Positions 1 to 61,030 of a DNA stretch of 64,000 bases are shown here, piece by piece (position 1 is the stretch's first letter; each line of letters opens with the position of its first letter). Under the pieces are notes generated by a model that ran no database searches, had not been told where the DNA came from, and saw nothing but the letters and a program-made list of their open reading frames with translations. The stretch lies in the NCBI GenBank assembly GCA_964016885.1, contig OZ024743.1, positions 185,628,001 through 185,692,000 of the forward strand. Reading direction: 5' to 3'. Origin of the DNA: Eledone cirrhosa (taxonomy: Eukaryota). The translations under genes and the position numbers were made by a program.

Positions 1-3000
1 AAACGTTAACAGTGTTGGTGAGTGAGATTCTAGCATGGCATAAACGTTAACAGTGTTGGTGAGTGAGATTCTAGCATGGCATAAACGTTAACAGTGTTGG
101 TGAGTGAGATTCTAGCATGGCATAAACGTTAAAAGTGTTGTTGACTGAGATTCTAGCATGGCATAAACGTTAACAGTGTTGTTGAGTGAGATTCTAGCAT
201 GGCATAAACGTTAACAGTGTTGTTGAGTGAGATTCTAGCATGGCATAAACGTTAACAGTGTTGTTGAGTGAGATTCTAGTATGGCATAAACGTTAACAGT
301 GTTGGTTAGTGAGATTCTAGCATGGCATAAACGTTAACAGTGTTGGTGAGTGAGATTCTAGCATGGCATAAACGTTAACAGTGTTGGTGAGTGAGATTCT
401 AGTATGGCATAAACGTTAACAGTGTTGGTAAGTGAGATTCTAGCATGGCATAAACGTTAACAGTGTTGGTGAGTGAGATTCTAGCATGGCATAAACGTTA
501 ACAGTGTTGGTGATTGAGATTCTAGCATGGCATAAACGTTAACAGTGTTGGTGAGTGAGATTCTAGTATGGCATAAACGTTAACAGTGTTTGTGAGTGAG
601 ATTCTAGTATGGCATAAACGTTAACAGTGTTGGTGAGTGAGATTCTAGCATGGCATAAACGTTAACAGTGTTGGTGAGTGAGATTCTAGTATGGCATAAA
701 CGTTAACAGTGTTGGTGAGTGAGATTCTAGCATGGCATAAACGTTAACAGTGTTGGTGAGTGAGATTCTAGCATGGCATAAACGTTAACAGTGTTGGTGA
801 GTGAGATTTTAGCATGGCATAAACGTTAACAGTGTTGGTGAGTGAGATTCTAGTATGGCATAAACGTTAACAGTGTTTGTGAGTGAGATTCTAGTATGGC
901 ATAAACGTTAACATTGTTGGTGAGTGAGATTCTAGTATGGCATAAACGTTAACAGTGTTGGTGAGTGAGATTCTAGTATGGCATAAACATTAACATTGTT
1001 GTTGAGTGAGATTCTAGTATGGCATAAACGTTAACAGTGTTGGTGAGTGCGATTCTAGTATGGCATAAACATTAACAGTGTTGTTGAGTGAGATTCTAGT
1101 ATGGCATAAACGTTAACAGTGTTGGTGAGTGAGATTCTAGTATGGCATAAACGTTAACAGTGTTGTTGAGTGAGATTCTAGTATGGCATACACATTAACA
1201 GTGTTGTTGAGTGCGATTCTAGCATGGCATACACGTTAAACGTGTTGTTGAGTGAGATTATAGCATGGCATACACATTAACAGTGTTGTTGAGTGAGATT
1301 CTAGTATAGCATAAACGTTAACAGTGTTGGTGAGTGAGATTCTAGTATGGCATAAACGTTAACAGTGTTGGTGAGTGAGATTCTAGTATGGCATACACAT
1401 TAACAGTGTTGTTGAGTGAGATTCTTACATGGCATAAACGTTAACAGTGTTGTTGACTGAGATTCTAGCATGGCATAAACGTTAACAGTGTTGTTGAGTG
1501 AGATTCTAGCATGGCATAAACGTTAACAGTGTTGTTGAGTGAGATTCTAGCATGGCATAAATGTTAACAGTGTTGTTGAGTGAGATTCTAGCATGGTATA
1601 AACGTTAACAGTGTTGGTGAGTGAGATTCTAGCATGGCATAAACGTTAACAGTGTTGTTGAGTGAGATTCTAGCATGGTATAAACGTTAACAGCGTTGTT
1701 GAGTGAGATTCTAGCATGGTATAAACGTTAACAGTGTTGGTGAGTGAGATTCTAGCATGGCATAAACGTTAACAGTGTTGTTGAGTGAGATTCTAGCATG
1801 GCATAAACGTTAACAGTGTTGTTGAGTGAGATTGTAGTATGGCATAAACGTTAACAGTGTTGGTGAGTGAGATTCTAGCATGGCATAAACGTTAACAGTG
1901 TTGGTGAGTGAGATTCTAGCATGGCATAAACGTTAACAATGTTGTTGAGTGAGATTCTAGCATGGCATAAACGTTAACAGTGTTGTTGAGTGAGATTGTA
2001 GTATGGCATAAACGTTAACAGTGTTGGTGAGTGAGATTCTAGCATGGCATAAACGTTAACAGTGTTGGTGAGTGCGATTCTAGTATGGCATACACATTAA
2101 CAGTGTTGTTGAGTGCGATTCTAGCATGGCATACACGTTAAAAGTGTTGTTGAGTGAGATTATAGCATGGCATACACATTAACAGTGTTGTTGAGTGAGA
2201 TTCTAGTATAGCATAAACGTTAACAGTGTTGGTGAGTGAGATTCTAGTATGGCATAAACGTTAACAGTGTTGGTGAGTGAGATTCTAGTATGGCATACAC
2301 ATTAACAGTGTTGTTGAGTGAGATTCTAGCATGGCATAAACGTTAACAGTGTTGTTCAGTGAGATTCTAGTATGGCATAAACGTTAACAGTGTTGGTGAG
2401 TGAGATTCTAGTATGGCACAAACGTTAACAGCGTTGGTGAGTGAGATTCTTACATGGCATAAACGTTAACAGTGTTGTTGACTGAGATTCTAGCATGGCA
2501 TAAACGTTAACAGTGTTGTTGAGTGAGATTCTAGCATGGCATAAACGTTAACAGTGTTGTTGAGTGAGATTCTAGCATGGCATAAACGTTAACAGTGTTG
2601 TTGAGTGAGATTCTAGCATGGTATAAACGTTAACAGTGTTGGTGAGTGAGATTCTAGCATGGCATAAACGTTAACAGTGTTGTTGAGTGAGATTCTAGCA
2701 TGGTATAAACGTTAACAGTGTTGTTGAGTGAGATTCTAGCATGGTATAAACGTTAACAGTGTTGGTGAGTGAGATTCTAGCATAGCATAAACGTTAACAG
2801 TGTTGTTGAGTGAGATTCTAGCATGGTATAAACGTTAACAGTGTTGGTGAGTGAGATTCTAGCATGGCATAAACGTTAACAGTGTTGTTGAGTGAGATTC
2901 TAGCATGGTATATAAGTTAACAGTGTTGGTGAGTGAGATTCTAGCATGGCATAAACGTTAACAGTGTTGTTGAGTGAGATTCTAGCATGGCATAAACGTT

Positions 3001-6000
3001 AACAGTGTTGTTGAGTGAGATTGTAGTATGGCATAAACGTTAACAGTGTTGGTGAGTGAGATTCTAGCATGGCATAAACGTTAACAGTGTTGGTGAGTGA
3101 GATTCTAGCATGGCATAAACGTTAACAGTGTTGTTGAGTGAGATTCTAGCATGGCATAACCGTTAACAGTGTTGTTGAGTGAGATTGTAGTATGGCATAA
3201 ACGTTAACAGTGTTGGTGAGTGAGATTCTAGCATGGCATAAACGTTAACAGTGTTGGTGAGTGCGATTCTAGTATGGTATAAACATTAACAGTGTTGTTG
3301 AGTGAGATTCTAGTATGGCATAAACGTTAACAGTGTTGGTGAGTGAGATTCTAGTATGGCATAAACGTTAACAGTGTTGTTGAGTGAGATTCTAGTATGG
3401 CATACACATTAACAGTGTTGTTGAGTGAGATTCTAGCATGGCATACACGTTAAAAGTGTTGTTGAGTGAGATTATAGCATGGCATACACATTAACAGTGT
3501 TGTTGAGTGAGATTCTAGTATAGCATAAACGTTAACAGTGTTGGTGAGTGAGATTGTAGTATGGCATAAACGTTAACAGTGTTGGTGAGTGAGATTCTAG
3601 CATGGCATAAACGTTAACAGTGTTGGTGAGTGAGATTCTAGCATGGCATAAACGTTAACAGTGTTGTTGAGTGAGATTCTAGCATGGCATAAACGTTAAC
3701 AGTGTTGTTGAGTGAGATTGTAGTATGGCATAAACGTTAACAGTGTTGGTGAGTGAGATTCTAGCATGGCATAAACGTTAACAGTGTTGGTGAGTGCGAT
3801 TCTAGTATGGCATAAACATTAACAGTGTTGTTGAGTGAGATTCTAGTATGGCATAAACGTTAACAGTGTTGGTGCGTGAGATTCTAGTATGGCATAAACG
3901 TTAACAGTGTTGTTGAGTGAGATTCTAGTATGGCATACACATTAACAGTGTTGTTGAGTGAGATTCTAGCATGGCATACACGTTATAAGTGTTGTTGAGT
4001 GAGATTATAGCATGGCATACACATTAACAGTGTTGTTGAGTGAGATTCTAGTATAGCATAAACGTTAACAGTGTTGGTGAGTGAGATTGTAGTATGGCAT
4101 AAACGTTAACAGTGTTGGTGAGTGAGATTCTAGTATGGCATACACATTAACAGTGTTGTTGAGTGAGATTCTAGCATGGCATAAACGTTAACAGTGTTGT
4201 TCAGTGAGATTCTAGTATGGCATAAACGTTAACAGTGTTGGTGAGTGAGATTCTAGTATGGCACAAACGTTAACAGTGTTGGTGAGTGAGATTCTAACAT
4301 GGCATAAACGTTAACAGTGTTGTTGACTGAGATTCAAGCATGGCATAAACGTTAACAGTGTTGTTGAGTGAGATTCTAGCATGGCATAAACGTTAACAGT
4401 GTTGTTGAGTGAGATTCTAGCATGGCATAAACGTTAACAGGGTTGTTGAGTGAGATTCTAGCATGGTATAAACGTTAACAGTGTTGGTGAGTGAGATTCT
4501 AGTATGGCATAAACGTTAACAGTGTTTGTGAGTGAGATTCTAGTATGGCATAAACGTTAACAGTGTTGGTGAGTGAGATTCTAGCATGGCATAAACGTTA
4601 ACAGTGTTGGTGAGTGAGATTCTAGTATGGCATAAACGTTAACAGTGTTGGTGAGTGAGATTCTAGCATGGCATAAACGTTAACAGTGTTGGTGAGTGAG
4701 ATTCTAGCATGGCATAAACGTTAACAGTGTTGGTGAGTGAGATTCTAGCATGGCATAAACGTTAACAGTGTTGTTGACTGAGATTCTAGCATGTCATAAA
4801 CGTTAACAGTGTTGTTGAGTGAGATTCTAGCATGGCATAAACGTTAACAGTGTTGTTGAGTGAGATTCTAGCATGGCATAAACGTTAACAGTTTTGTTGA
4901 GTGAGATTCTAGCATGGTATAAACGTTAACAGTGTTGGTGAGTGAGATTCTAGCATGGCATAAACGTTAACAGTGTTGTTGAGTGAGATTCTAGCATGGC
5001 ATAAACGTTAACAGTGTTGTTGAGTGAGATTCTAGCATGGTATAAACGTTAACAGTGTTGGTGAGTGAGATTCTAGCATGGCATAAACGTTAACAGTGTT
5101 GTTGAGTGAGATTCTAGCATGGTATAAACGTTAACAGTGTTGGTGAGTAAGATTCTAGCATGGCATAAACGTTAACAGTGTTGTTGAGTGAGATTCTTGC
5201 ATGGTATAAACGTTAACAGTGTTGGTGAGTGAGATTCTAGCATGGCATAAACGTTATCAGTGTTGTTGAGTGAGATTCTAGCATGGTATATAAGTTAACA
5301 GTGTTGGTGAGTGAGATTCTAGCATGGCATAAACGTTAACAGCGTTGTTGAGTGAGATTCTAGCATGGCATAAACGTTAACAGTGTTGTTGAGTGAGATT
5401 GTAGTATGGCATAAACGTTAACAGTGTTGGTGAGTGAGATTCTAGCATGGCATAAACGTTAACAGTGTTGGTGAGTGAGATTCTAGCATGGCATAAACGT
5501 TAACAGTGTTGTTGAGTGAGATTCTAGCATGGCATAAACGTTAACAGTGTTGTTGAGTGAGATTGTAGTATGGCATAAACGTTAACAGTGTTGGTGAGTG
5601 AGATTCTAGCATGGCATAAACGTTAACAGTGTTGGTGAGTGCGATTCTAGTATGGCATAAACATTAACAGTGTTGTTGAGTGAGATTCTAGTATGGCATA
5701 AACGTTAACAGTGTTGGTGAGTGAGATTCTAGTATGGCATAAACGTTAACAGTGTTGGTGAGTGAGATTCTAGCATGGCATAAACGTTAACAGTGTTGGT
5801 GAGTGCGATTCTAGTATGGCATAAACATTAACAGTGTTGTTGAGTGAGATTCTAGTATGGCATAAACGTTAACAGTGTTGGTGAGTGAGATTCTAGTATG
5901 GCATAAACGTTAACAGTGTTGTTGAGTGAGATTCTAGTATGGCATACACATTAACAGTGTTGTTGAGTGAGATTCTAGCATGGCATACACGTTAAAAGTG

Positions 6001-7106
6001 TTGTTGAGTGAGATTATAGCATGGCATACACATTAACAGTGTTGTTGAGTGAGATTCTAGTATAGCATAAACGTTAACAGTGTTGGTGAGTGAGATTCTA
6101 GTATGGCATAAAAGTTAACAGTGTTGGTGAGTGAGATTCTAGTATGGCATACACATTAACAGTGTTGTTGAGTGAGATTCTAGCATGGCATAAACGTTAA
6201 CAGTGTTGTTCAGTGAGATTCTAGTATGGCATAAACGTTAACAGTGTTGGTGAGTGAGATTCTAGTATGGCACAAACGTTAACAGTGTTGGTGAGTGAGA
6301 TTCTAACATGGCATAAACGTTAACAGTGTTGTTGACTGAGATTCTAGCATGGCATAAACGTTAACAGTGTTGTTGAGTGAGATTCTAGCATGGCATAAAC
6401 GTTAACAGTGTTGTTGAGTGAGATTCTAGCATGGTATAAACGTTAATAGTGTTGGTGAGTGAGATTCTAGCATGGCATAAACGTTAACAGTGTTGTTGAG
6501 TGAGATTCTAGCATGGTATAAACGTTAACAGTGTTGGTGAGTGAGATTCTAGCATGGCATAAACGTTAACAGTGTTGTTGAGTGAGATTCTAGCATGGCA
6601 TAAACGTTAACAGTGTTGTTGAGTGAGATTGTAGTATGGCATAAACGTTAACAGTGTTGTTGAGTGAGATTCTAGCATGGTATAAACGTTAATAGTGTTG
6701 GTGAGTGAGATTCTAGCATGGCATAAACGTTAACAGTGTTGTTGAGTGAGATTCTAGCATGGTATAAACGTTAACAGTGTTGGTGAGTGAGATTCTAGCA
6801 TGGCATAAACGTTAACAGTGTTGTTGAGTGAGATTCTAGCATGGCATAAACGTTAACAGTGTTGTTGAGTTAGATTGTAGTATGGCATAAACGTTAACAG
6901 TGTTGTTGAGTGAGATTCTAGCATGGCATAAACGTTAACAGTGTTGTTGAGTGAGATTGTAGTATGGCATAAACGTTAACAGTGTTGGTGAGTGAGATTC
7001 TAGCATGGCATAAACGTTAACAGTGTTGGTGAGTGAGATTCTAGTATGGCATAAACGTTAACAGTGTTGGTGAGTGAGATTCTAGTATGGCATAAACGTT
7101 AACAGT
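1..7106. repeat. 41-bp tandem satellite array (~173 units, open at window start)
   Basis: Unit AAACGTTAACAGTGTTG(G/T)TGAGTGAGATTCTAG(C/T)ATGGCAT repeated head-to-tail; the last partial unit starts at 7094 = 1+173x41. Confidence 0.98.
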
Positions 7107-7954
7107 ACTCGAATGATATCAGTGAGAACAGTCATAAACACTGATATGTGCTATTGCTTTTATTCATCGAAGCAAAAGTTAATTTCAGTCATTGATATCA
7201 TTAGAGTAAAAGCCGTAAGAAACCAGATATGACCAGCTTCTGCATGTTCTCTTTATACTGTCAATGATGTGATTCTGCCTATTCATGAAAGTTAATTAAA
7301 GCTAAAATGAATGAATAAATAAATGAATATACAAACAAATAAAGAGATAAATATATATTCCTATTTATATTGTTTGAATGTTTTCTTGGAGACTATCGTT
7401 CTTCCATCATATCGATTTTTTGTGATTTGTTAAAAGACCAAGTTAGTTGTAGATGTTTAGACATTTCAAGAGTGGCTATCCTCTCTTATTTTCAAGTACT
7501 GTGTATTGTAGGACGATATTATTCACTGTGTTTTTCCTATTTTTCCGGTGGTAGAGTGTGATTTAAGAGGAATTTTGTTCCTATTAGAAATAGAGTATGC
7601 AGTCGCATGGTGATACCCAGTCAGTTGAAGTAGTTGATACTTTTCTCTCGTGATATCCACATTATTCCAACATATGAAACAACACATTACTTAACACCAA
7701 CGAAGTATGAAATTTGGGGCCCTTCTCTAAAAAAATGTTTAAATATTTATACATGATTGTTATTTTTTTATATTAATGTTAATGATAAAGAATAAATAAT
7801 GTCTATATAATATCGAAATGGCTTCTACAGGACTAGAACTCTTTCATTTGGGAGAAATCATCAGGAAGCTCTATTATATATTTAAATATTTATATTCTGC
7901 TTTGTATTGAGTACCTTACTTACTGTGGTTACCCCCGATTGAACCCGGGAGAAA

Positions 7955-11199: not shown

Positions 11200-13490
11200 T
11201 GCTGAAATGTTAGAACCCTTTTGAAGCACAATTCATCAAACTGACTTCAATGGAACATGAGAAAACTTCAGAAATCAAGTACGCAGCAGGAACAGAAGAA
11301 TTGGGATTCAGAGTGAAAAAAAACCATAAAGACTGATGTGATGATAATGAACAAGCTATCAGCCAGCTGTTGAAAAGAAAACATGGTCTTCATGAAAAGG
11401 TTCAGTGAGAGTGCCCAGTAAACTGACCTATTATTAAGAAAACATATAAAGAATGTAAAGCTATCTTACAGCGTGAACTGAGGAAGCTTAAGAATGATTG
11501 GTGGTCGAAGATCTCTGTGGAACTGTTAAAGGTTGGTAATGAGAACATAACTCAAATAGTACTCTATCTCATCACAAAGTGTTGGCCAGACACTCCTGTA
11601 CAACAGGATTGGATCGATGGTAGCTTGGTGGCCTTGTTCAAGGGTAAAGGAGAAAAAGGAATTTGTAATCCCTATCATGGCATTACTCTGTTGGAAGTTG
11701 TGGGCAAAGTTCTTGCTCGATTATTGTTGAATAGGTTGATGGAAGACATTTGTCCTACAGTAATCTCTGAATCACAAAGTAGATTTAGATCTGGCAGAGG
11801 GATGATTGATATGAACTTCTCTGCAAGGCAGATACAGGAGAAATGTATTGAGCAGCTGGTTCCTCTGTATCAGGTTTTTGTTAATCCGACAAATGCCTTT
11901 GTTACAGTGACCAGAGGTGTGCTATGGAAAATACTAAGGAAAGTAAGGTGCCCACCAAAGTTTGTTGATATGTTTTTCCAGCTGCATAGAGATATGAAGG
12001 CTTGGGTAGTCTTTAATGGAGAATTGTCCAATGAAATCCCAGTTGACAATGGTGTGAAGCAAGGAGATATCACAGCTCCCACACTATTTTCAATATTCTT
12101 GATTGTGCTGCGGACTCTTGCATTCCAGGTCTGTGAGAATGGTGCTCTATTGCGAATGGTGCTCTATTGCGAATGGTGTTCTACAGGAAGAATCTTTGAC
12201 CTAAGAAGATTCAATTTCAAGTCCAATGTGTTCTAAACACTAATTAGAGAACTCCTGTATGCAGACGGCGTTGACTTTCTGGCTCACTCTCAAGATGACA
12301 AGCAGCACATCATGGATTGTTTTGCAGTTTCTTGTAATGCCTTTAGTATGAAAATTAATTTGAAAAAGACTAAAGTAATGTTCACCCCAGCACCAGGAGA
12401 AGCATACATTGAGCCAAATATAATGGTACATGGAACTAGGTTGGGTGTATTTGACATTTTTGTTTACTTGGGCAGTGCATTGTTGAGGGATGGTTCACTG
12501 GATGTGGAATACACCTGCACATTGAGAAGAGCTCTGTAACCTTCGGAAAACTCGAAAGAAAGTGTGGGCGGATCATGGCATCAATAACATAGACCAAGAT
12601 TAGTGTGTTCAAAGCCTGTATACAGTCTGCTCTGTTGTACGCCTCAGAGATGTGAACAGTACATCGTAGACACCTCAGTCTGCTTGAACACTTTAATCAA
12701 AAGAGGCAACAAAAATACCTGACACACAAATCCTTATAGATGCTTATTGCACAAGCATTGAACCTGACATCATATCCTCTCAAATGCGTTGGTCAGGCCA
12801 CATTGTTCGTATGAATGAGGATAGACTCCCAATTGAATGATGATAGACAGTCAATTGCACGCTGAGAAACGCCCTCAGCACAAACCAAGAAAAAATATAA
12901 AGACTGCAAAAAAAAAAACAACCTTATGGATCTACAGACTGAACTTCAGAACTAGGATGTGCTAGCTTTAAAGAGGGTTGAATGGAAAAGACATGTGAAG
13001 GAAGGCTGCAGACTGTCTGAAGAGAGATGTCTCGACCATGAAAGTCTTAAACATCAGCCTTGAATAGGCCACAGTAGGAACCTCAATAAGAACAAAGGAA
13101 GCTGGAGATGTAAAGTGTATGGTTGTCTAATGTTCTCTAAATCTGGGTACATCACTCATCTAAAATCACATGAAGGACTAACTGTATGCAGCATTATCCC
13201 TCCAATACTAGGCGAGACAACATGTGTGGTATGCAGAAAAATCTGCAAATTAACTTTTGGTTTTAAAAAGCAAATGAGAGTACATAAGGATGACATTCAC
13301 AAACTGACCTAATCAATCCAATAGAAGGCACATTTTTTTGTCCGTCATATTTGTTCTAGACCATGCAAATCTGCAGCTGGACTTAAAAGCTACCTACAAT
13401 GTCATAGCTGGACATTTGGGGGTGGTGATGATGTTGGGGGTATACAAAGAGATGACAATCATCTGTAAAGATGGTGCAATCACCATGTAT
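11200..13490 (+). pseudogene. RTE (BovB-like) LINE, degenerate RT plus C-terminus
   Basis: ORF 11517-12236 has RT motifs (LFKGKG...YHGITLL, SQSRFRSGRG, GVKQGDITAPTLF); LLYADG at ~12252; INLKKTKVM, FVYLGS; several stops and frameshifts. Confidence 0.9.
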
Positions 13491-15602: not shown

Positions 15603-15696
15603 TATATATATATATATATATATATAAACAAGGTTTAGCAAATAATGAAAAAGTTTCAAAATAAATTTTTAAAAATTGACCTTACCTACTATAGTT

Positions 15697-15781
15697 ACCT
15701 TTACCGATCGGTTTCGAATCCCAAAAATAAAACGGAGACCATACGGCCTTCGTTTGCAAAGAAAGATTCTCGTCAGAAGGT
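15697..15781 (-). ncRNA. Type I hammerhead ribozyme (inverted copy)
   Basis: Reverse complement of 15919-16003 with an intact core. Confidence 0.8.
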
Positions 15782-15918
15782 TCTTTTCATTCAAAGAATA
15801 TAAAATTCATGAATTTAAATCACAGACTAGCGCTATCAAAACTGTTCCCGGGATGAGAATGGATGATGTAGAAACAGGTTTATCAAGGGCCGAATTTTAT
15901 ATTCTTTGAATGAAAAGA

Positions 15919-16003
15919 ACCTTCTGACGAGAATCTTTCTTTGCAAACGAAGGCCGTATGGTCTCCGTTTTATTTTTGGGATTCGAAACCGATCGGTAAA
16001 GGT
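15919..16003 (+). ncRNA. Type I hammerhead ribozyme, extended stem II
   Basis: ACCTT-CTGACGA-GAATCTT...GGGATTC-GAAA-CCGATCGG-TA-AAGGT: stem I ACCTT/AAGGT, palindromic stem III, GUA cleavage triplet. Confidence 0.85.
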
Positions 16004-16402
16004 AACTATAGTAGGTAAGGTCAATTTTTTAAAATTTATTTTGAAACTTTTTCATTATTTGCTAAACCTTGTTTATATTTGTTCTGGCTCGTTAATTTAT
16101 TAACCCGCCATTGAACCACACTGGCATTTGGTTGGACAATACATGCGTACCTTAGCACCTTGTGTGTGAAGGAACACATATCCTATTACTACTACCTCCT
16201 CTAATGTTGAGAACAAATTTGGTCGTTCTGACTGCTGCTAGCGATAGCTGTGGCTGGTTTGACCTACCTCCTTCTGCCTCTATCTTTGCTTCGGCCCTTG
16301 ATAAACCTGTTTCTACATCATCCACTCTCATCCCGGGAACAGTTTTGATAGCGCTAGTCTGTGATTTAAATTCATGAATTTTATATTCTTTGAATGAAAA
16401 GA

Positions 16403-16487
16403 ACCTTCTGACAAGAATCTTTCTTTGCAAACGAAGGCCGTATGGTCTCCGTTTTATTTTTGGGATTCGAAACCGATCGGTAAAGGT
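16403..16487 (+). ncRNA. Hammerhead ribozyme copy with G8A core mutation (probably inactive)
   Basis: Same as 15919-16003 but the core reads CTGACAA. Confidence 0.7.
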
Positions 16488-16667
16488 AACTATAGTAGGT
16501 AAGGTCAATTTTTTAAAATTTATTTTGAAACTTTTTCATTATTTGCTAAACCTTGTTTATATTTGTTCTGGCTCGTTAATTTATTAACCCGCCATTGAAC
16601 CACACTGGCATTTGGTTGGACAATACATGCGTACCTTAGCACCTTGTGTGTGAAGGAACACATATCC

Positions 16668-31200: not shown

Positions 31201-32592
31201 ATCATCATCATCAACGTTTAACGTCCGTGTTCCACGCTTGCATGGGTTTGGACGGGGGTATTCCCACTTGAGGCAAGAGTGATTGTCTTGCTCACATAGG
31301 ACTGTCTGGCAGGTTTTCTACAGTTGGATGCCCTTCCTAACACCAACCACATTTACAGTGTGGGACTGGGAGGTTTTTACCGTGTTGCCTACACGGCCAC
31401 ATTACAGCGTGGACTGTGTGTTTTTTTGTCGTGACACCTACACGATCTCATTTGTTTCGGCCTGGATGTTGTGGCACCAACATAACTTTACATAGGAGGG
31501 GGTGGTGTGGATGGGGGTGGTGGGACAGGGTTGTTAGAGATGCCTACTGGCTGTAGTAGGTTTTACTATGTATTTAGGTAAGGCGGGTCTTCTCTATTAC
31601 TGAGTACCGCCAAAGGTCTCGGTCCAGTGACATTGTCTTGGAGAGGTGTAAGTGTGTGAGGTCGGAGTTTATCAGCTCGTCCCAGGATTTTCTAGGTCTG
31701 CCTATTCCGTGGCTACCGTCTATCTTTATTGCCCTGCACTTTGTTATACAGCTATCGACTTTCATGCGCATCACGTGTCCGTACCAACGTAGCCTTCTCT
31801 CGAGTAAACAACATCTGATCCCTCTTATTTCTAATTTTTTCCTTAGTTCGTTTATGCTTTGCCGTTCACGTATATTACTATTACACATCCAGCGGAGCAT
31901 GCAAGCTTCGTTCCTCTCTAGTCTGCGTATATCCTCTGCGCACAATGCCCAGGTCTCACTGCCATGCAACATTGCTGTTCGTATGCAGGCATCATACAAC
32001 CTGCCTTTCATTTTTAGGGAGAACCCTTTAGCGGCTAATAGTGGTATAAGCTCTCTGAACTTTTTCCATCCAGTTCTGACTCTAGCTACTGTACTTTCGG
32101 AGCACCCTCCCCCACTGCTGATTTTGTCACCCAGGTAACAGAAGCTGTCCACTATTTCTATAGAGCCCTCTGCGCAATTGAAAGAGTTAGTATTTTGTGG
32201 GCACTCGCTGCTACTTATTGCACCAGAGCACCGCCCACATGTAAAATCTAAGTTCTTAGTTAGCTTACCTGTGATCCCACTACATCTTTTATGCACCCAT
32301 ACTTTGCATTTGGGACATAAAATGGAGTTTCTACCTACGCCTTTCCTACACACTGAGCATGGCCATTTCCCGGAAGGGACCGGCGCCTTATTTTCTTTCC
32401 TACAAACTAGAACTTTAGTCTTAGCCAGGTTAATTTTAAGGCCTTTTGATTCTAGGCCGTGCTTCCATGTTTGGAATTTCTTCTCTAGCTCGGCCATTGA
32501 TTCAGCTATGAGTGTCAGGTCGTCTGCGTATAGGAGTTCCCATGGGCAGCCGGTCTTGAACTCCTCTGTTATAGCCTGAAGGGCAATAATAA
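31201..32592 (-). mobile_element. RTE LINE, 5'-truncated within RT, with open C-terminal frame
   Basis: CPWELLYADDL upstream of the 307-aa ORF 31574-32497 (INLAKTKV, CSVC, FCYLGD, RRLRWYGHVMRM); (GAT)n tail. Confidence 0.93.
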
Positions 32593-33250
32593 ATAGTATA
32601 TATATGTATATATATAATAATAAATAGTATATATATGTATATATATAACAAATGGTTTATCCCATCCTTGCAAGCAGGGGAAAGCGGACGTAAAATGTTG
32701 ATGATGATGATGATATATATATATATATATACCTTTACTCATGCTAGCTGGGAAAATGGGCGTAAAACAATGATGATGATATATATATATGTATGTATGT
32801 ATATATGTATGTATATATGTATGTATATATGTATGTTTGTTTGTGTGTATACAAGTGTTAAACTAACATATTTCTTCATTATACTGTTGTTTGCTTTGTT
32901 ATTTCTGGTTACTTTTAGCATACACACACATTCACACACACACACATACACTCACACACTCATGTATACTCTGTGTGTGTGTATGTGGGTGCTTCTTTTT
33001 ATCAATCCTCACCAAATATTCTACTGTCCTTGACAATGTACAGAAAATAATATATTACTCATCATCACAGATTGTAGACTGCCAACATGACGAAACAAAA
33101 ATATTAAACCTGAAAGATCATCCTTGTTTTCCACCTTGTTGGAAATCCTCTTTTGTTGTTTCAGTTTTTAAGAACTTTGGGGAACCGTCTGGTCCTTCCA
33201 ACTATCACACTATTAGTCTTCTACCTCTTTTTGGCACAGTATCTAAGGCC

Positions 33251-35990: not shown

Positions 35991-36764
35991 TCAGTTTTCC
36001 GACGTCTCGAAAGAGCAGGGCTGAATACAGTGTTTCGCCTTTTCACGAAAATGCATGTGATACCAACACAAAGACGAGTTGTTGGCGGGGAAGTTGGCGC
36101 GACGATGAAGAGAAGGAGACCATCTTCGTGAACGCCACCTAGATGGCGTTCGCTCCTGACACAGTTTAGCTACTTGATGAGTTAACGCATCAATGGCTCT
36201 CAACATTGAGTCCTCACGAGGTGAAGCAGGCTGGGTTTTGAAAGCAGAAGAAGCGACGACTGAATCTGCCAAAGTAGGCACATGAGAAAATTCCATAATG
36301 CGGTCCGCCGAGGCTGCAATTTGTTCCAGAGAACTGGTGTCGACCATATTTGCCAATATGGTCTGCACATCTGTGGGCAAACGGGAGAAGAATAATTGTT
36401 TCACGAAAGAGTTGTCCTCTGCTGTTGTGTCACTCAGTTCCCGGATGTGCCGTAAAAACTGAGATGGGGTTCTGACTCCCAGGTTTTCTCCTTCCAACAA
36501 GGAATGAAATCTGCTCTCAGACGAGCGGTTGTTCCGTCTGAGCACTTCTGCCTTTAGGGTTTCGTAAGATGTGCCTTGTGGAGGATCTGTAATTATGTCT
36601 TTAACTGAGGTTGCTAGCGAAGCAGGAATTCCACTTATAAGCACATGTAATCTTTGTTGTGTCACTTGAACACCGTGGGCAGCAAAATACGAGTCCAGTT
36701 GGGCAAACCACAACTTTGCATCACCAGAATATGCCGGTAACGAAGAATTGCTCATGGTGAACAC
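35991..36764 (-). CDS. gag: Gypsy Gag-like protein (257 aa, open)
   Basis: LPAYSGDAKLWFAQLDSYF N-terminus, TPSQFLR, FFSRLP, C-terminal CWYH..F.EKAKHCIQPC knuckle. Confidence 0.85.
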   Translation of the reverse strand: MFTMSNSSLPAYSGDAKLWFAQLDSYFAAHGVQVTQQRLHVLISGIPASLATSVKDIITDPPQGTSYETLKAEVLRRNNRSSESRFHSLLEGENLGVRTPSQFLRHIRELSDTTAEDNSFVKQLFFSRLPTDVQTILANMVDTSSLEQIAASADRIMEFSHVPTLADSVVASSAFKTQPASPREDSMLRAIDALTHQVAKLCQERTPSRWRSRRWSPSLHRRANFPANNSSLCWYHMHFREKAKHCIQPCSFETSEN

Positions 36765-37190
36765 AGTAGACGCTGAGCGAAATTTTTTTTCTCAACTACC
36801 GCACACGTGGTAGTACCATGAATAGCTGAAGTAAAAATATAGCACCGAGCAAGTAAGATGGCGACTTCAAAAAAAAGAAAGCTTGGTTGAACCGACGACA
36901 CGAGGGACAACATTTTAAAAAATTTTTTTTTCTCCTATTTTGGTGAAATATCACGCTGTCAACATGGCGATTTGCTTCTTCAATTTTTTTTTTGTTCGCC
37001 CCACACAGACTGACTGAAATAAAACAAACTTCCTAGAGTCGAGAACAATTCTTTTCTGTGTCGTTGTTGAGGTCACCATTTTAGTGAGTTGTTTAGCAAT
37101 AGTTTGTGTAGCAATAAATTGTAATAGTGTATGAAAATATTTGTCACTACTTTTAGGCGAGGGTGAATCTATGGATTTGTTTTGCTGCGC

Positions 37191-49855: not shown

Positions 49856-50652
49856 TGTTCAATGTTGAATCCTAATTTCTAACATTAATTTGTACATCTT
49901 CCTATTTATTTTTAATTTTTAATTAATTCTGAATTTTTAATTTTCAATGTTGAATTCTAATTTCTAACCCCTAGCATTAATTTATCTATCCACTTATATT
50001 GATAGGTGAATAAAACAATAATTCACTCATCAATATAAGCTTTTGTGGTTAACATTATGACTTGCTTTGTCCCACCATAAGATAGTGGTAGGAAGTGGGG
50101 AGATGCATGCATGACACCACTGGAATTTTAATTTAATACTGCTGGTGTCTGTTGGATGAGATAGAGTGGCTGATGTAGCAGATGTCACTGGCTGTTCTTC
50201 ATGGCAATACCGTCACCTTTCGGAATGGGGTGTTTAGTCTCCTGTTCCTTTCCCTTTCTTTCATGTTTTTCCTCTTTCATATTCTTTTTTTTTTGTATGT
50301 AAACATTATATAATCCAAATATAAATATACCTAGTAAGGATTTGTTGACACTAAACAATTACATGCTATAAAGAATTAAAATTCTTATTAGGATTTGTCA
50401 GAATTATAAAAATAAAAAGAGAGGAAATGAAGAGGCATACTTAGTAAACCGGAACAAGATGTTGGAAGTTGATCTGAGTGGGGAAATAATGTATAGAACA
50501 GTAAACAAGCATAATGATTTCTAATTTTAACTCAAGGCCAGCAATTAATTTTTGGTGGGTGGGGTAGTTGATTATATATTACAAAACGTACATATGTCTA
50601 TATATATATATGAAAAATGGCGTGCTGCGTGGTTGCACGTGGGTTACATATG

Positions 50653-50940
50653 AATAAAATTAGTCCTTCATCAGTGATCTTCCAACCTTCATTGGTATTT
50701 CTTCGCTTTAAAGATCATATACCTCTGGTTGGTGCGAGCAATAACTAAAGAAAGTTATTGGGACAAGTAAACTAGGGTGAAACGAGCGAGTTGTTTACAT
50801 GTGTCGCTCGCTTCACCCTAGTTTATGTGTCCCAATAACTTTCTTTAGTTATTGCTCGCACCAACCAGAGGTATATGATCTTTAAAGTGAAGAAATACCA
50901 ATGAAGGTTGGAAGATCACTGATGAAGGACTAATTTTATT
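50653..50940. repeat. 288-bp near-perfect palindrome (fold-back / MITE-like)
   Basis: Arms 50653-50789 and 50804-50940, with a 14-nt loop. Confidence 0.92.
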
Positions 50941-51039
50941 TATATGTATACACACCATAACACAAGTAAATACAAGACATACAGCAACAAAAACATATTT
51001 TAAGGGTTGAGCAGATTAAGGATGGCAGGCAAGGAAGAA

Positions 51040-54691: not shown

Positions 54692-54925
54692 TTAACCCTT
54701 TAGCATTTACATTACTCTATATTTATTATTATATTTTCACGGTAAAAGGCTTAACCTGAAATAACTATCTCACATAATATCAAATCTATGAGATTTTGAT
54801 ATTATTCATTTTGAGAACAATACCTTAACATCGGTATGAGTGGCCAGTTACAGCTGATTTGAACAGAAAGAGGTGAGAGAATTCTGGCTGGATACGGCCA
54901 GCCGGTTTAAATGCTAAAGGGTTAA
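54692..54925. mobile_element. piggyBac-type MITE
   Basis: TTAACCCTTTAGCATTTA...TAAATGCTAAAGGGTTAA. Confidence 0.87.
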
Positions 54926-55153
54926 AGGTTACAGTTGTGGGCGCAGATTTGGGAAAAGGTGGGGCAAATAGTGGCATGCATATAGAGGTGGGAAGATCTT
55001 TAAAAAATAGGTTCATTGGAAGAGGCAAGTGTGACAGGTGGTGGAAGTGGAGACAGAAACATCTGGGAAGGAGGTGGTAGTAGAAGCAATGACTGAGCAT
55101 GATTGTGACTGGAGTGACAGGATTTCTTTAAAAAAAAAAAATATTGAGAGCTG

Positions 55154-55522
55154 TATAGCGGGGATTACTGGTTGTATGAATGTAACAAAACGAGACAATG
55201 TTTGTGTATATAATATTTAATTAACGGTAGATAGAATACTTGACATGTCAAAGATAGATGTTAGAATGAAGCAAAGTTAGTAGTTACCGTTTTGATTGCC
55301 AGGCAAACGCGGCTGGCAGAGGGCGCCTGGCCTTAGCCAGGCGCCTGTTGGCCAAATTAATGGCAGAGCCAAATGAGAAGACTCTTGACCTGGTGCCGAA
55401 AAGGCAAAGAGAGAGGAAGGAAGCTTAACGTTGTTAGTTTTATAGGGCTCTGACCGGAAGTTGCAGAAAGGGTTCCACCTCCCGTCTAGATCCCAATCAA
55501 AACAAGGGAGACAACCGCTACA
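55154..55522 (-). repeat. LTR (left, facing outward)
   Basis: Minus strand reads PPT GGCGGGAGG-TTA-TGTAGCG...CGCTATA, with TATAAAA and ATTAAA inside. Confidence 0.7.
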
Positions 55523-57669
55523 TAACCTCCCGCCAGAATTTTAGTGTATAAAAATCGAAATGAAAATATGTAGCAAGTTGGCGAGAATGTTGTAACAGGC
55601 ATGGAAATTACGACAAAAGAATGTCTGGAAAAATCAATGATAGATATCAAGGTAACCAACCGCTCTTGGCCAGAGAACGACTGGACATCCATCTATCCAT
55701 CACCCAAAGACACAATGTAATAAAGTAAAAGTAATAGAAGAGCTCAAAGCTCAAAATATAGTTCACAGGTGTGCAATCACATGACAGCAGGAAAGAAAGT
55801 GTGTTCCAGAGAATGAATGCAGGTGGTTTCTGTTCTGTGGTATATCGTGAAATTTCCAACCTCCGAATGGATTTTCTCACAGGAAGAGTGCTGCAAAAAT
55901 GAATTCTCTGGCTTTGGTGAAGCTGTATTGATGTATTGCTGTTGCTGTTATATTGCTGTTGCTGCTGCTGTTGTCTCGCTGAGTGAGCGTATTCGGTGTT
56001 TAAATTCACAGTAAAAAAATTTTTTTTTAGAAAAAATGAGTTGCGCAAAGTGCTAGAAATAGCAGCCGAAGTTGATGGTCGATGTTGAGAATGCGTTGAC
56101 CTGGAAGGGTCAAGAGGCCAGCGACCAGAGAAATAAGCATTCTTAATAAATGCGCGGTTATCAACGGTAAATTTACATTGTAAATTTATAAACCGGCAAA
56201 TAGAAGAATATAGCTTAAGGCTGAAGAATCCTTGGGGGAGAAATGCTATCTCTGGCGTGCGGCTGTCTGTGAGTAAGAGACATCTCAGTGAATCGAGAAT
56301 TTATGCTGCCTACACGTGCCAATACAAGGTTGAAAAAAAATATTTCTAACGCGCGAGAAAATGATAGTGCAATTTTGAAAGTGACAATGATGAAAAAGAA
56401 AAGCTTCAATCAGCATAATTATAGGTGTGAACTTTTGGAAAAAAAAAAAAAAACTAGAACGATGAAGAAAACGAAGAACAAAAGGCAATGGTTCATCGAA
56501 AATAAATGTTCCTGTTGAAATGTTTTTTAAAGAATATCAAATTTCTTTTTTTTTTTTTTTGTGTGTGTTTTGAAAGAGTTCGTTGTAAGAAACGAGAAAC
56601 ATATATATATATCGTGAAATGTTTTTTCTCGTTTCTTACAACGAACTCTTTCAAAACACCAAAAAAAAAAAAGAAATTTGATATTCTTTAAAAAACATTT
56701 CAACAGGAACATTTATTTTCGATGAACCATTGCCTTTTGTTCTTCGTTTTCTTCATCGTTCAAGTTTTTTTTTTTTTTTTTCCAAAAGTTCACACCTATA
56801 ATTATGCTGATTGAAGCCTTTCTTTTTCATCATTGTCACTTTCAAAATTGCACTATCATTTTCTCGCGCGTTAGAAATATTTTTTTTTCAACCTTGTATT
56901 GGCACGTGTAGGCAGCATAAATTCTCGATTCACTGAGATGTCTCTACTCAGACAGCCGCACGCCATTTATCACCAGGGATTCTTCAGCCTTAAGCTATAT
57001 TCTTCTATTTGCCGGTTTATAAATTTACAATGTAAATTTACCGTTGATAACCGCGCATTTATTAAGAATGCTTATTTCTCTGGTCGCTGGCCTCTTGACC
57101 CTTCCAGGTCAACGCATTCTCAACATCGACCATCAACTTCGGCTGCTATTTCTAGCACTTTGCGCAACTCATTTTTTTCTAAAAAAAAAATTTTTTACTG
57201 TGAATTTAAACACCGAATACGCTCACTCAGCGAGACAACAGCAGCAGCAACAGCAATACATCAATACAGCTTCACCAAAGCCAGAGAATTCATTTTTGCA
57301 GCACTCTTCCTGTGAGAAAATCCATTCGGAGGTTGGAAATTTCACGATGTACCACAGAACAGAAACCACCTGCATTCATTCTCTGGAACACACTTTCTTT
57401 CCAGCTGTCATGTGATTGCACACCTGTGAACTATATTTTGAACTTTGAGCTCTTCTATTACTTTTACTTTATTACATTGTATCTTTGGGTGATGGATGGA
57501 TGGATGTCCAGTCGTTCTCTGGCCAAGAGCGGTTGGCTACCTTGATATCTATCATTGATTTTTCCAAACATTCTTTTGTCGTAATTTTCATGCCTGTTAC
57601 AACATTCTCGCCAACTTGCTACATATTTTCATTTCGATTTTTATACACTAAAATTCTGGCGGGAGGTTA

Positions 57670-58035
57670 TGTAGCGGTTGTCTCCCTTGTTTTGATTAGG
57701 ATCTAGACGGGAAGTGGAACCCTTTCTGCAACTTCCGGTCAGAGCCCTATAAAACTAACAACTTTGGGCTTCCTCTCTCTCTTTGCCTTTTCGGCACCAG
57801 GTCAAGAGTCTTCTCATTTGGCTCTGCCATTAATTTGGCCAACAGGCGCCTGGCCTTAGCCAGGCGCCCTCTGCCAGCCGCATTTGCCTGGCAATCAAAA
57901 CGGTAACTACTAACTTTGTTTCATTCTAACATCTATCTTTGACATGTCAAGTATTCTATCTACCGTTAATTAAATATTATATACACAAACATTGTCTCGT
58001 TTTGTTACATTCATGCAACCAGTAATCTCGCTATA
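57670..58035 (+). repeat. LTR (right, facing outward)
   Basis: PPT-like GGCGGGAGG (57658-57666), TGTAGCG start, ACTTCCGG (57731), TATAAAA (57748), ATTAAA (57969), CGCTATA end. Confidence 0.72.
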
Positions 58036-58494
58036 GCTGTAAGGTCAGCGGGATATGCCTGGAAGGGAAAGGTGTGAAGAAATATTTTAGACAAAGCTGT
58101 TGGTTATTATCCATTTTTCTTTCCCTCATTTTTTCCTCTATTTTCTTTTCTCTTGTCTTTTTTCCTTTAAAATGACATGTTATTAAAAGATTGACAACAA
58201 TAACATTAACATCCACACAAAATCAGTGAAACATATGCTAACAGAATTGTCCACATTGTACATAGATATTGTCACAAAGATTGCTTTTCCTATAACTCTA
58301 TGTTCTTGATGTTAATAAAATATTTATATATTCCATTTCAATCAGATTGCTGTCACCTAACTTCTAATAATGCCAACATACTTGATCTGTCTTTCATACA
58401 TCACAGTAGCAATACTCCAGCATGTTGATGGATGTATATCATACATTTACAAAAGATGGTGGCATTTGTTATAGGGTTCTCACTTGCAAATCTG

Positions 58495-58545
<51 letters not shown>

Positions 58546-61030
58546 TTAAAAGTGGCAACAAGTCCACGATTCGGTCTTTGAAAGACCAAAACGGACGCGT
58601 GCTACTTGACCCCAGGCAGATGCGCACGGCCTTTCAGCAGCACTTTGCGCAACTGTTTGAGCAGCACGACGGTGCACCAAACAGGGCAATGGACTTTGGT
58701 TCATACCTCGACGGCCTGCCGCGAATCTCGAGCATGGATGCTGAGTTCTGCGAAAGACCGATCAGAGCCACTGAGATACGGAACGCTCTGGGCCGCTGCG
58801 TGAAACGCAAATCACCCTGTCTAGATGGTCTACCCTATGAGTTTTACATAGACATACCGGACTTGTTCTCTGGCGTCCTCGAAGCCATCTACTACAATTG
58901 GCAGCAGAACGGGACAATTCCCAGTTTTGCAGGCAAGGCCGTAGTAACGCTGATCAGGAATGAGAACAAGGGGGATGAGATAAGCAATTTCAGGTCCATA
59001 ACTCTGCTCAACACAGAGTTAAAGATTTTGGCCAAGGTGCTAGCAATGAGACTAGGGCTTGTCGTCGAAAACCTGGTAGGGAAAGCGCAAACATGTGCAA
59101 TCCTGACTAGGTCCATACACGACAACCTCCACCTCATGAGATACATCATAGAGAGGGTGGGGTGTAAACCCGGCTTCGGTGGGGCTCTGATCAATTTAGA
59201 TCAGTCTAAGGCATTCGATAGGGTCGACCATCGATACTTGGAAGCGGTTCACAAGGCAGCCGGTTGCAGTCCCGTTTTCAGAGGCTGGATCGAGGTGATG
59301 CACACCAGCATCTGCTCAAAGGTCAAGGTGAATGGCTACCTATCGGAGCCGTTCGCAATCACACGTTCCATCTGACAGGGATGCCCTCTCTCCTCCATTC
59401 TGTATGTATTGACTCTAGAGCCACTACTGCGGAAGTTGCAGCTTTTGCAAGGCATCCTTTTAGAACCGGGACTGCGAAAAGCGGCGTCGGCTTATGCTGA
59501 CGACCTGAAGGTAATGGTGTCGAAAATCGAGGTAATTGGCAACCTACTACAGGAATACAAAAGGTTCACAGGAGCAAAACTGAACCCAGACAAGTCTGTC
59601 GGTTTGCAACTCGGAACGTGGAGAGGCAAACCGATGCCATCCAACAGCGTCGTCGGACGCTGGACGGAATGACCGGTGAAATTGCTTGGGGTAGAGAACA
59701 ACTGGAACGAGGTCATAGCCAAGGTATTTGCGCTCACCAAGAAGTGGACAGAGTGCAAACTGTCTTTGAAAGGTCGAGCGGAGGTGGCAAACACTTTCAT
59801 AGCGTCTGTCATCTACTACCGCTTGACTGTTGTGCCTTGTCCCCGTGAATACCTCACCAAGATGGAATGCATGCTCTTCCAGTTCCTGTGGAAGAAGCAG
59901 ACTCAACTGGTGAGGACATCCGTCTGCTGTCAACACCCTTCCAACAGAGGGCTGGGCATGCCGTGGCTAATGATGCGCAAACATGCGCTGAGGCTACGGC
60001 ATCTCCAGGTATTCCTCACCGACCAACCGGTGTGGGCACCGTTTGTGAGACAGGCCTTCCCACAACCTGTCTCGCTGACGGAGCTGCAGTCCTGGGTCAA
60101 GCAAAGACCGAAGAAGATGGGCGCCTGGCACATTGAATGCGCCCAGGCGCTCACAGTCCTCTATCAAGCGGGCACAGCAATCAGTGGAGACTCCACTTCA
60201 ACATTCTATAGAGGGTTAGTACTTTACAAGTGCGACGACGTGCTCGGGGAGACTCTAGGCGTCGAAGACGACGAGCTCACCAGTCTGTTCGGTAGGACTT
60301 TCCGCCCCGGACCTATGGACAACTTCCAGAGGTCCCTGGCCTGGCAGTGCTACCAAGGAGCTCTACCCGTTCGAGACAAGATCTACAGGCACGGACGCCC
60401 CGGCAGGGATCCTTCCAAGAGGACGTGTCCAAGATGCAAGCAGGACATTGAAACCATCTTGCACGCAATTGTACACTGCCCGGGCGTAAGCGACCTGTGG
60501 AACTATGCAGAACAACTGTTGTCGCGTATGGGACAAATCCAGTTGACTGCCGAGTCCATAGTAAGGATCAAACCGCCAGCCTCTTTCAAAAATGAAAGAG
60601 AGGCGGTTTTCCTCTGTATAGTGGCTATGGTGAAAGAAGTTATATGATGGACGAGATTGAGAGGACTGAGGACAGATGCCTTTCTCTCCGGACAACAATT
60701 GATTCCCTTCTTTAAGTATCACTTTAGAAGGAGAATCAGAGTGGAGAGTGAGGCACTGCACCCCAGTAAATTTACTGAAAGGTGGGTGATTGTGGCAAAA
60801 ATGGCCCGAGTGATTGGGCTTTCTCTGTTTATAAGCCTGTAGGTTAAAGAAGAGAGCACAAGGAAGAAAGGAGCACTTGCACAACACGCTCCTGAAGTTG
60901 AGGGCTGTTCTATTGACGGGGCATTAAACAACCCATTTGTGGTGCTTCCCCCCTATTGGGGTTTTGATTGTTATAATTGTTTGTTTCAATATTTTTACAC
61001 GACTGTATGTAAAATCCCTGGCATGAGTTA
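58546..61030 (+). pseudogene. L1/Tx1-like LINE ORF2 (RT plus C-terminal Zn finger), 5'-truncated
   Basis: KSPCLDGLPYEFY, NFRSITLLNTELKILAK, LDQSKAFDRV, *QGCPLS, SAYADD, CPRC...ETILHAIVHC; four track ORFs in one frame separated by three TGA stops. Confidence 0.93.

Follow-up and report, generated by a model that had tools for sequence, protein, structure and literature searches.

The stretch of DNA analyzed here (the window) comprises 64,000 nucleotides of Eledone cirrhosa, namely C4:185628001-185692000 (contig OZ024743.1) of the 3.0-Gb assembly GCA_964016885.1, and contains a 2,882-bp palindrome at positions 55154-58035, which is referred to below as the window element. This palindrome combines the 3′ halves of two distinct members of a young family of long terminal repeat (LTR) retrotransposons; the halves lie head to head, share a TTT joint and entered the genome as a single insertion. 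Its arms are two family haplotypes, hence two templates, and comparable insertions with two U5 (unique 5′) or two U3 (unique 3′) termini, here termed like-ended, recur as a by-product of the family rather than representing a novel element type. The two halves were probably joined when a minus strand in the course of synthesis jumped to that of another RNA packaged in the same particle, and the product was likely integrated via its two U5 ends by the integrase of an autonomous partner.

Structure of the Window Element

An earlier sequence-only reading of the window had described a palindrome of ~2.88 kb with ~1.43-kb arms and a ~25-nt TA-rich center, which is borne out by self-alignment, as the left arm (55154-56599) matches the reverse-complemented right arm (56625-58035) in 1379 of 1450 columns (95%), with 43 gap columns. 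The central 221 nt fold with a free energy of -97.4 kcal/mol (z -22), and none of 200 shuffled sequences was equally stable. Self-alignment and comparison with ordinary copies define an inverted 3′-type LTR of 369 bp at the outer end of the left arm (55154-55522, reverse strand), and the right arm terminates in a 3′ LTR of 366 bp (57670-58035, forward strand) with the ends TGT...ATA, a TATAAAA at 57748 and an ATTAAA at 57969. Both LTRs point with their U5 end toward the flank and differ from each other at 10 of 365 sites. The polypurine tract (PPT), GGCGGGAGG, is found at 55526-55534 on the reverse and at 57658-57666 on the forward strand, and an identical tract adjoins the 3′ LTRs of ordinary copies. 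Copies of GCTG directly adjoin the element on both sides (55150-55153 and 58036-58039), forming a target site duplication (TSD) of the family's length at the precise LTR ends. The canonical arrangement of direct LTRs with one primer-binding site (PBS) and one PPT is not what the palindrome displays, since its LTRs are inverted with U5 at both ends, the PPT occurs twice and the PBS is absent. The PPT, the ~366-bp unit with its TATAAAA and ATTAAA motifs and the flanking GCTG had all been recognized in the sequence-only reading, as had the two U5 termini, the second PPT and the missing PBS; its proposal that insertion occurred in one integrase-type event is likewise supported, the 4-bp TSD being of the family's own length.

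The interior of the left arm (template 1; 55523-56627, reverse strand) is non-coding and extends from an A-run, at ~position 280 of the 1,367-bp interior of the parent element, to the PPT, and the interior of the right arm (template 2; 56625-57669, forward strand) is also non-coding, as judged by comparison with parent copies. No Pfam family was detected in the three open reading frames of ≥120 amino acids within the element; a coding remnant in the arms was rejected on this basis, in agreement with the earlier statement that they contain no recognizable protein. The left arm begins in the A-run that precedes CATTTCACG, and the right arm begins 30 bp further on. Measured from the PBS of the parent, the starting points of the two arms lie ~280 and ~310 bp downstream. 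Each arm thereby corresponds to the 3′ three-quarters of an ordinary parent copy, with the 5′ LTR, the PBS and ~300 bp of leader absent. The templates meet in a TTT microhomology of 3 nt (56625-56627), visible as an overlap of the arms, and the unpaired 25-nt center with its (AT)n run (56600-56624) is template-1 sequence without a partner in the right arm rather than foreign filler. A 6-bp stem, AAACAT/ATGTTT, with a 16-nt loop adjoins this strand-switch junction. Inverted repeats already present in the parent at the fold point were considered as a source of the palindrome and rejected, as the short reverse matches are due to the palindromic query and to a 67-bp direct duplication in the parent. 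Autointegration at the junction is ruled out because the junction does not lie at an LTR end, and inversion via recombination between two inverted copies would swap TSDs and keep normal ends, unlike the structure found.

Two Family Haplotypes in the Two Arms

The arms differ by substitutions at 32 of 1404 sites (2.3%), as compared to a median of 1.85% over the 780 pairs that can be formed among 40 other copies, and their divergence exceeds that of 79% of these pairs; they are not copies of each other, but diverge like two random family members. The 40 copies were picked by likeness to the window element and remained from 48 loci after removal of seven covering <1,100 bp and of one duplicate, and because of this choice the test was repeated on a panel of 127 loci, mostly sampled by position. 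At 24 of the 26 difference events, both alleles were found with their context in other copies of the panel, which traces the arms to two templates. The differences are spread over the whole 1.4 kb, the first lying 35 bp from the center; two of them are indels, of 17 bp and 10 bp, that also segregate among family members. A single folded strand would give arms that are identical at insertion, whereas the arms observed differ, and the snap-back of one complementary DNA (cDNA), which the sequence-only reading had offered as one of two possible origins, was not borne out for this element. The tree of copies, which leaves 15 of its 39 inner branches open, places the right arm as sister to L038 (support 99/89) and the left arm with L059 and L063 in a starred 11-row clade. 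Private substitutions are limited to one per arm (42 rows), which makes the window element young.

The Parent Family and Its Autonomous Partner

An ordinary copy of the parent family is 2.1 kb long and comprises an LTR, a PBS, a non-coding interior of ~1,370 bp, a PPT and a second LTR in direct orientation. That the 366-bp unit is a true LTR, as had been suggested, was confirmed by a genome search (best 40 of 1,381 candidates scored), which revealed direct pairs ~1.7 kb apart as well as solo LTRs, with 98-99% identity and 4-bp TSDs. The exact PPT-LTR junction occurs 413 times genome-wide. Examination of 80 loci, six of which lacked an LTR at both ends, gave an exact 4-bp repeat at 59 of the 74 automatically scored loci, and the misses that were inspected turned out to be mis-set LTR ends, tandems or nests; the duplication is hence 4 bp and not the 8 bp of a hAT-type miniature inverted-repeat transposable element (MITE), which had been named as the observation that would speak against an LTR origin. 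In 73 ordinary copies, the median number of substitutions between the two LTRs is three, and the family is accordingly young. It is also highly mosaic in the tree of copies, and direct tandems of the template-switch kind are found as well (L151, L175, and L180).

The PBS of the parent is complementary to tRNA-Trp and matches the 3′ end of tRNA-Trp(CCA) genes identified by ARAGORN (loci L218 and L219). Among 90 sampled loci, an exact match was present in only five of 68 non-autonomous copies, with the other 63 carrying one to three mismatches (two in 53 of them). Imperfect pairing of this kind might impede the second strand transfer, and aberrant products could thereby become more frequent. Three further loci, L215-L217, were rejected as tRNA genes, being primer sites of other elements. 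Two regions, C4:353394905-353486314 and C4:277407663-277440858, hold ≥39 and ≥10 matches to the tRNA-Trp 3′ end, respectively, and the three that were tested are tRNA-Trp genes. At C14:21368891-21463349, 13 same-strand PPT-LTR matches are spaced by ~4-6 kb, which is probably a tandem array that holds the element. The LTR also occurs in variant classes, one with 77 forward and 36 reverse matches and another with 40 and 59.

A pol frame with reverse transcriptase, RNase H and integrase domains is present in some sampled loci; Pfam identifies RVT_1, RT_RNaseH, Integrase_H2C2 and rve in that order at L178:5158-7791, and a 741-bp pol piece recurs with 97-100% identity in the best 40 of 1,013 candidates. 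The structure of this autonomous partner was derived from three copies, two of which are 6.0-kb elements with a distinct 428/400-bp LTR, 4-bp TSDs, and gag and pol frames. The 3′ non-coding stretch of the partner matches the non-autonomous interior with 97% identity in one 6.0-kb copy and 81% in the other, while no 3′ end of the third copy is present within the stretch fetched. Within the window element, ~480 bp of the right-arm interior (roughly 56980-57450) is 97% identical to this 3′ non-coding region. The gag signature CX2HX9CX3C (CHCC) is found in all three copies and CCHC in none, and the LTRs end in TGT...AAA in the partner, as compared to TGT...ATA in the non-autonomous element. Another candidate for an autonomous element, of 9 kb (L041; C2:87.36-87.37 Mb), proved to be a tandem-repeat array with three 5′ LTR pieces. 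In several insertions (L118/L183, L180, and L143), the partner LTR is combined with either an LTR or interior sequence from the non-autonomous element. One LTR of each type stands under one TSD at L118 (GATA) and L180 (GAAG), with the TSD of L143 being offset by two bases, and such single-TSD insertions with one LTR of each type indicate that the two elements meet in one particle.

Recurrence of Like-Ended and Switched Insertions

The sample examined comprised 100 of the 413 PPT sites, corresponding to 98 loci on C1 and the start of C2 that were chosen regardless of structure; as it was anchored on exact PPT-LTR matches within 3.5-kb stretches, the rates derived from it are rough. Within the stretches fetched, an opposite-strand piece of the family is missing at 91 of the 98 loci and present at seven, two of which are nested insertions (L100 and L109). 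Like ends are found at three loci and a strand switch at five. Two of the like-ended elements are of the U5-U5 type, with the TSDs CTCT (L168/L196) and ACAA (L164/L211; L211:3887-4325), and one is U3-U3 with the TSD GATA (L155/L179; L179:4875-6962), while L124 and L125 combine normal ends with an internal inversion. In L196, an LTR with 32 bp of adjoining interior, both from a non-autonomous element, is attached to the LTR and pol end of the partner, and two templates are needed because ends of both elements are joined. Outside the 98-locus sample, L176 is a further U5-U5 element of 2,299 bp with the TSD AAAC and interior arms of 1,138 and 398 bp, and the right element at L220 (L220:3529-5933) is U3-U3 with the TSD TGTT. 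Besides the window element, there are thus five like-ended insertions, three U5-U5 and two U3-U3. A matching 4-bp TSD flanks all six, as compared to a chance expectation of ~0.013 per locus estimated from 82 observed flanks. In the PPT-LTR match lists, opposite PPT pairs within 10 kb comprised L176 again and C3:159.65 Mb, and the latter was discarded as a like-ended element, being two independent insertions.

The junctions of the like-ended insertions all differ, the four U5-U5 elements having four junctions with microhomologies of 3, 1, 3, and 5 nt. Siblings of the window element with the same center were absent from the best 40 of 739 and the best 40 of 1,677 candidates. Of the features that the sequence-only reading had proposed to look for in further palindromic copies, different 4-bp TSDs were found in the like-ended insertions, but a shared center was not. 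A non-autonomous family with inverted LTRs, the other origin offered by the sequence-only reading, is not supported in view of the 91 loci without an opposite-strand piece and of the four different U5-U5 junctions.

Two observations on individual loci may be added. The strand switches at window:56611-56627 and L196:6975-6991 both fall on a template sequence AAACATTTCAC, located in two unrelated regions (leader and pol end, respectively), and this sequence is possibly a pause or cleavage site. At L221 (C4:11438586), 34 bp of an inverted LTR start with a PPT remnant are joined to a full element, and a left end and TSD were not found at this locus.

Proposed Origin of the Junction During Reverse Transcription

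In the proposed pathway, two non-autonomous RNAs would be packaged in a particle made by the partner, where tRNA-Trp would prime minus-strand synthesis on both, proceeding from the 3′ end of each RNA up to the A-run/(AT)n region, which lies ~280-310 nt before the PBS is reached. A minus strand stalled there would then pair by its 3′ end with the other minus strand via a few A:T pairs (three bases, or six with a bulge) and copy it to its U5 end, and fill-in would yield a linear duplex that lacks a PBS and terminates in U5 on either side. Integrase would finally join both U5 ends, the U3 and U5 end sites being near-mirror images of each other (TGTAGCG and CGCTATA). Since the 5′ LTR and the PBS are absent, a further round of copying would not be expected for the product. 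For Onsen, co-packaged RNAs are reported to recombine frequently in pairs (PMC5668417).

A related class of joints was found by a tight pattern search, in which the PBS is joined to an inverted leader at one base at eight sites (L197-L204) in six loci (C1:204387561, C1:204429084, C2:283227969-283232267, C3:161661750, C4:20234818, and C6:95313523). The inverted PBS is an exact copy of tRNA-Trp at all eight sites, whereas the other PBS is a genomic family variant at seven, and the exact form is that seen in five of 68 ordinary copies. The LTR type that takes part in the junction differs among sites. These junctions look like plus-strand strong-stop DNA mis-priming on the leader, though some may instead descend from one rearranged copy. 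To judge from these exact tRNA-copy junctions, from the mixed-LTR insertions and from the failure to find a clean U3-U3 ligation, the window junction probably arose at the stage of reverse transcription.

The main rival explanation holds that U3 ligation of two completed cDNAs gave a head-to-head dimer, which was integrated by its outer U5 ends, after which the center of the palindrome, comprising both 5′ LTRs, both PBS and ~300 bp of each leader, was lost via hairpin cleavage and end joining. It would likewise give two templates, one TSD and U5 ends, palindrome centers are unstable, and the short microhomology and asymmetric center suit end joining. However, there is no exact U3-to-U3 junction genome-wide, as the single site returned by the pattern has PPT remnants on both sides, although the pattern requires exact ends of one LTR type and would miss trimmed junctions. 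In addition, reverse transcription is indicated by the exact tRNA-copy junctions and by the U3-U3 insertions at L179 and L220, which end in a partial PBS or fold back within the LTR, so that ligation with subsequent loss of the center, in both its parts, is considered unlikely. Folding back of one minus strand at the AAACAT/ATGTTT stem, followed by overwriting of one arm by gene conversion, could draw on the position of the stem at the center and fits two other elements, namely L211, where the arms show no differences over 169 nt, and L220, with no differences from its own 3′ LTR at 168 sites. True self-fold-back seems to occur at these two loci, though not at the window locus. The fold of L211 lies at ~position 154 of the partner LTR, ~30 bp past a TATA-like GATAAAA at 123 and thus at the predicted end of minus-strand strong-stop DNA, and likely represents a true self-priming hairpin that was then used for the second transfer. 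For the window element, differences along the entire 1.4 kb, including the two segregating indels, and an age that leaves little time for end-to-end conversion make such a history quite improbable.

The fusion by deletion of two independent, opposite-oriented neighbors, with the GCTG match arising by chance, has precedents in the head-to-head pair at L220, whose two elements are 1.09 kb apart, and in the opposite nested insertions L100 and L109. Yet such neighbors differ in their TSDs (GTTT vs. TGTT at L220), the matching TSDs at all six like-ended elements would each have to be a rare coincidence, and a nest with one deletion leaves an outer U3 end or a residual LTR rather than U5 beside the TSD, and this explanation is thus very improbable. 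An assembly or fold-back read artefact was raised in the sequence-only reading as a way in which the palindrome could prove unreal, and long palindromes are a recognized artefact of long reads. It appears the least probable of all, as a folded read would yield identical arms and not two family haplotypes, and would not create a TSD, and as like structures with other junctions are present on other contigs. Furthermore, contigs of the public runs X3 and X4 cross both the left (54901-55190) and the right junction (58006-58300) with no differences and a depth of 8-13, as in the flanks. Joints of the "opposite strand" kind at 56600-56625 in run X7 were not accepted as support, as they are expected from reads of ordinary copies on a palindromic reference, and runs X1 and X2 contain only minor portions of the stretch.

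Several points weigh against a switch between two minus strands at the window locus. Runs X3 and X4 stem from one sample, which may be the assembled one; the center is bridged by none of the listed contig pieces and rests on the assembly; and an empty site was not seen, with no element-skipping joint among the joints listed. The left flank, except for a short repeat at 54850-54930, is single-copy sequence, so that the empty site cannot be rebuilt from repeat copies. The mosaicism of the family makes the tree only a rough guide to haplotypes. The intermediate itself was not seen, and the view that the arms were joined in the particle rather than at a later time draws on neighbors in the family and not on the window junction. 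A microhomology of 1-5 nt fits end joining equally well, and the 3-nt overlap is weak and lies within a T-run. Finally, not every U5-U5 element needs two templates, because the shared 400-bp interior of L176 is identical, with only the LTRs differing (12 of 371 sites; eight events, four with both alleles elsewhere), and the arms of L211 are identical as well. On balance, a minus-strand switch between two co-packaged templates is still regarded as the probable origin of the window element.

Implications and Other Features of the Window

If this interpretation is correct, the like-ended insertions are natural, germline-transmitted records of a Gypsy integrase that joins donors ending twice in U5 or twice in U3 no less cleanly than normal ones, and reverse transcriptase switches polarity between the two cDNAs of a particle at a countable rate (3/98 for like ends and 5/98 for strand switches). 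Annotation tools that recognize only direct LTRs would miss such elements or mislabel them as fold-back DNA transposons. The single window element is most likely a dead end, and the value lies in the series, which offers both like-ended classes, clean TSDs and a countable rate, the neighboring error classes being already published. It is plausible, though speculative, that the 1.4-kb hairpin, which shares ~480 bp with the autonomous partner, serves as a source of silencing RNA; among the public runs containing the stretch, in a search set to DNA, none is catalogued as RNA. A far-reaching extension, according to which polarity switching is regular throughout the clade (~3% like-ended and ~5% switched), the ends are interchangeable for integrase in vivo and the palindromes act as hairpin loci that silence both the family and its partner, has a small chance of being right.

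Elsewhere in the window, positions 1-7200 are occupied by a 41-bp tandem satellite with a strong GC skew, and a 266-amino-acid frame with DUF7041 at 35991-36791 (reverse strand) is probably a Gypsy gag remnant. Reverse-transcriptase remnants, probably of long interspersed nuclear elements, lie at 58410-60647, 11427-12236, and 31574-32656, the last of which also matches PHD finger models. Inverted repeats with arms of 97-99% identity are located at 50645-50948 (145-nt arms and a 14-nt spacer) and at 15622-16562 (273 nt and 187 nt).

Comparison With Known Systems

Inverted terminal or head-to-head structures are also known from DIRS elements, Foldback/Galileo, hAT-type MITEs and head-to-head Penelope elements. 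The window element differs from all four groups in that it terminates in the U5 ends of Gypsy LTRs and is flanked by a 4-bp TSD, its parent has direct LTRs and the partner encodes reverse transcriptase, RNase H and integrase. DIRS elements have no TSD and use a tyrosine recombinase instead of a DDE integrase, and this identity was rejected on the basis of the 4-bp TSD and the rve integrase of the partner. In hAT-type MITEs and Foldback elements, the TSD is 8 bp or longer and terminal inverted repeats are present in ordinary copies, which does not agree with the 4-bp TSDs and direct LTRs of ordinary copies here. Mu killer of maize is an inverted duplication of part of a DNA transposon that has been shown to silence; by analogy, the inverted duplication in the window could yield a long hairpin RNA upon read-through from the flank, but it derives from an LTR retrotransposon and not from a DNA transposon.

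Searches of the literature for "inverted LTRs," "two U5 ends," and "aberrant strand transfer," in which subscription journals and older virology are thinly covered, gave no paper describing insertions of this type among the entries listed. In older virology, strong-stop DNA is known to prime itself, and donors with two U5 ends have been integrated in vitro. The available text of a review of recombination in reverse transcription holds no passage on inversion (PMC6894440), and "U5-U5" in a retroviral review denotes an RNA structure in the portion accessible (PMC12789967).

Aberrant products of reverse transcription have been reported in several systems, which are compared here on the basis of the excerpts available for each source. 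Autointegration gives rise to inversion circles in SISYPHUS, Ty1 and murine leukemia virus (PMC7197481), which resemble the window element in being aberrant inverted cDNA made in the particle, but have their junction at an LTR end and are not integrated, whereas the window junction is interior-to-interior and integrated. Among defective proviruses of human immunodeficiency virus type 1, inversions were found in 2 of 78 and in 6% of 531 sequences, and plus-strand transfer between two genome copies has been proposed to account for asymmetric LTRs (PMC9278108; PMC6235535). The latter resemble L118 in the present family, while the proviral defects described are internal inversions and deleted LTRs and not two U5 or two U3 ends. 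In Triticeae, rice and maize, template-switch complexes arise from two RNAs fused in reverse transcription under one TSD (Sabot and Schulman, 2007; PMC1950507). These complexes are direct tandems (LTR-int-LTR-int-LTR) with normal U3/U5 ends, formed by intermolecular transfer at R (the repeat region), while the window element changes polarity within its interior, at a microhomology, and terminates in U5 on both sides. The closest relatives by features are found in the CsRn1 clade of Ty3/Gypsy (CsRn1, PwRn1, and AgCR), for which a tRNA-Trp PBS, a 4-bp TSD, a CHCC gag and the LTR ends TGT...AAA or TGT...ATA are given in the part of the description available (PMC2582038). As judged by comparison of features with this description rather than by a reverse transcriptase tree, parent and partner bear the marks of the clade, namely the tRNA-Trp PBS, the 4-bp TSD and the LTR ends in both, and the CHCC gag and the domain order reverse transcriptase-RNase H-integrase in the partner, whereas the elements described there have direct LTRs and the window element combines inverted LTRs with two PPTs, no PBS and a non-coding interior.

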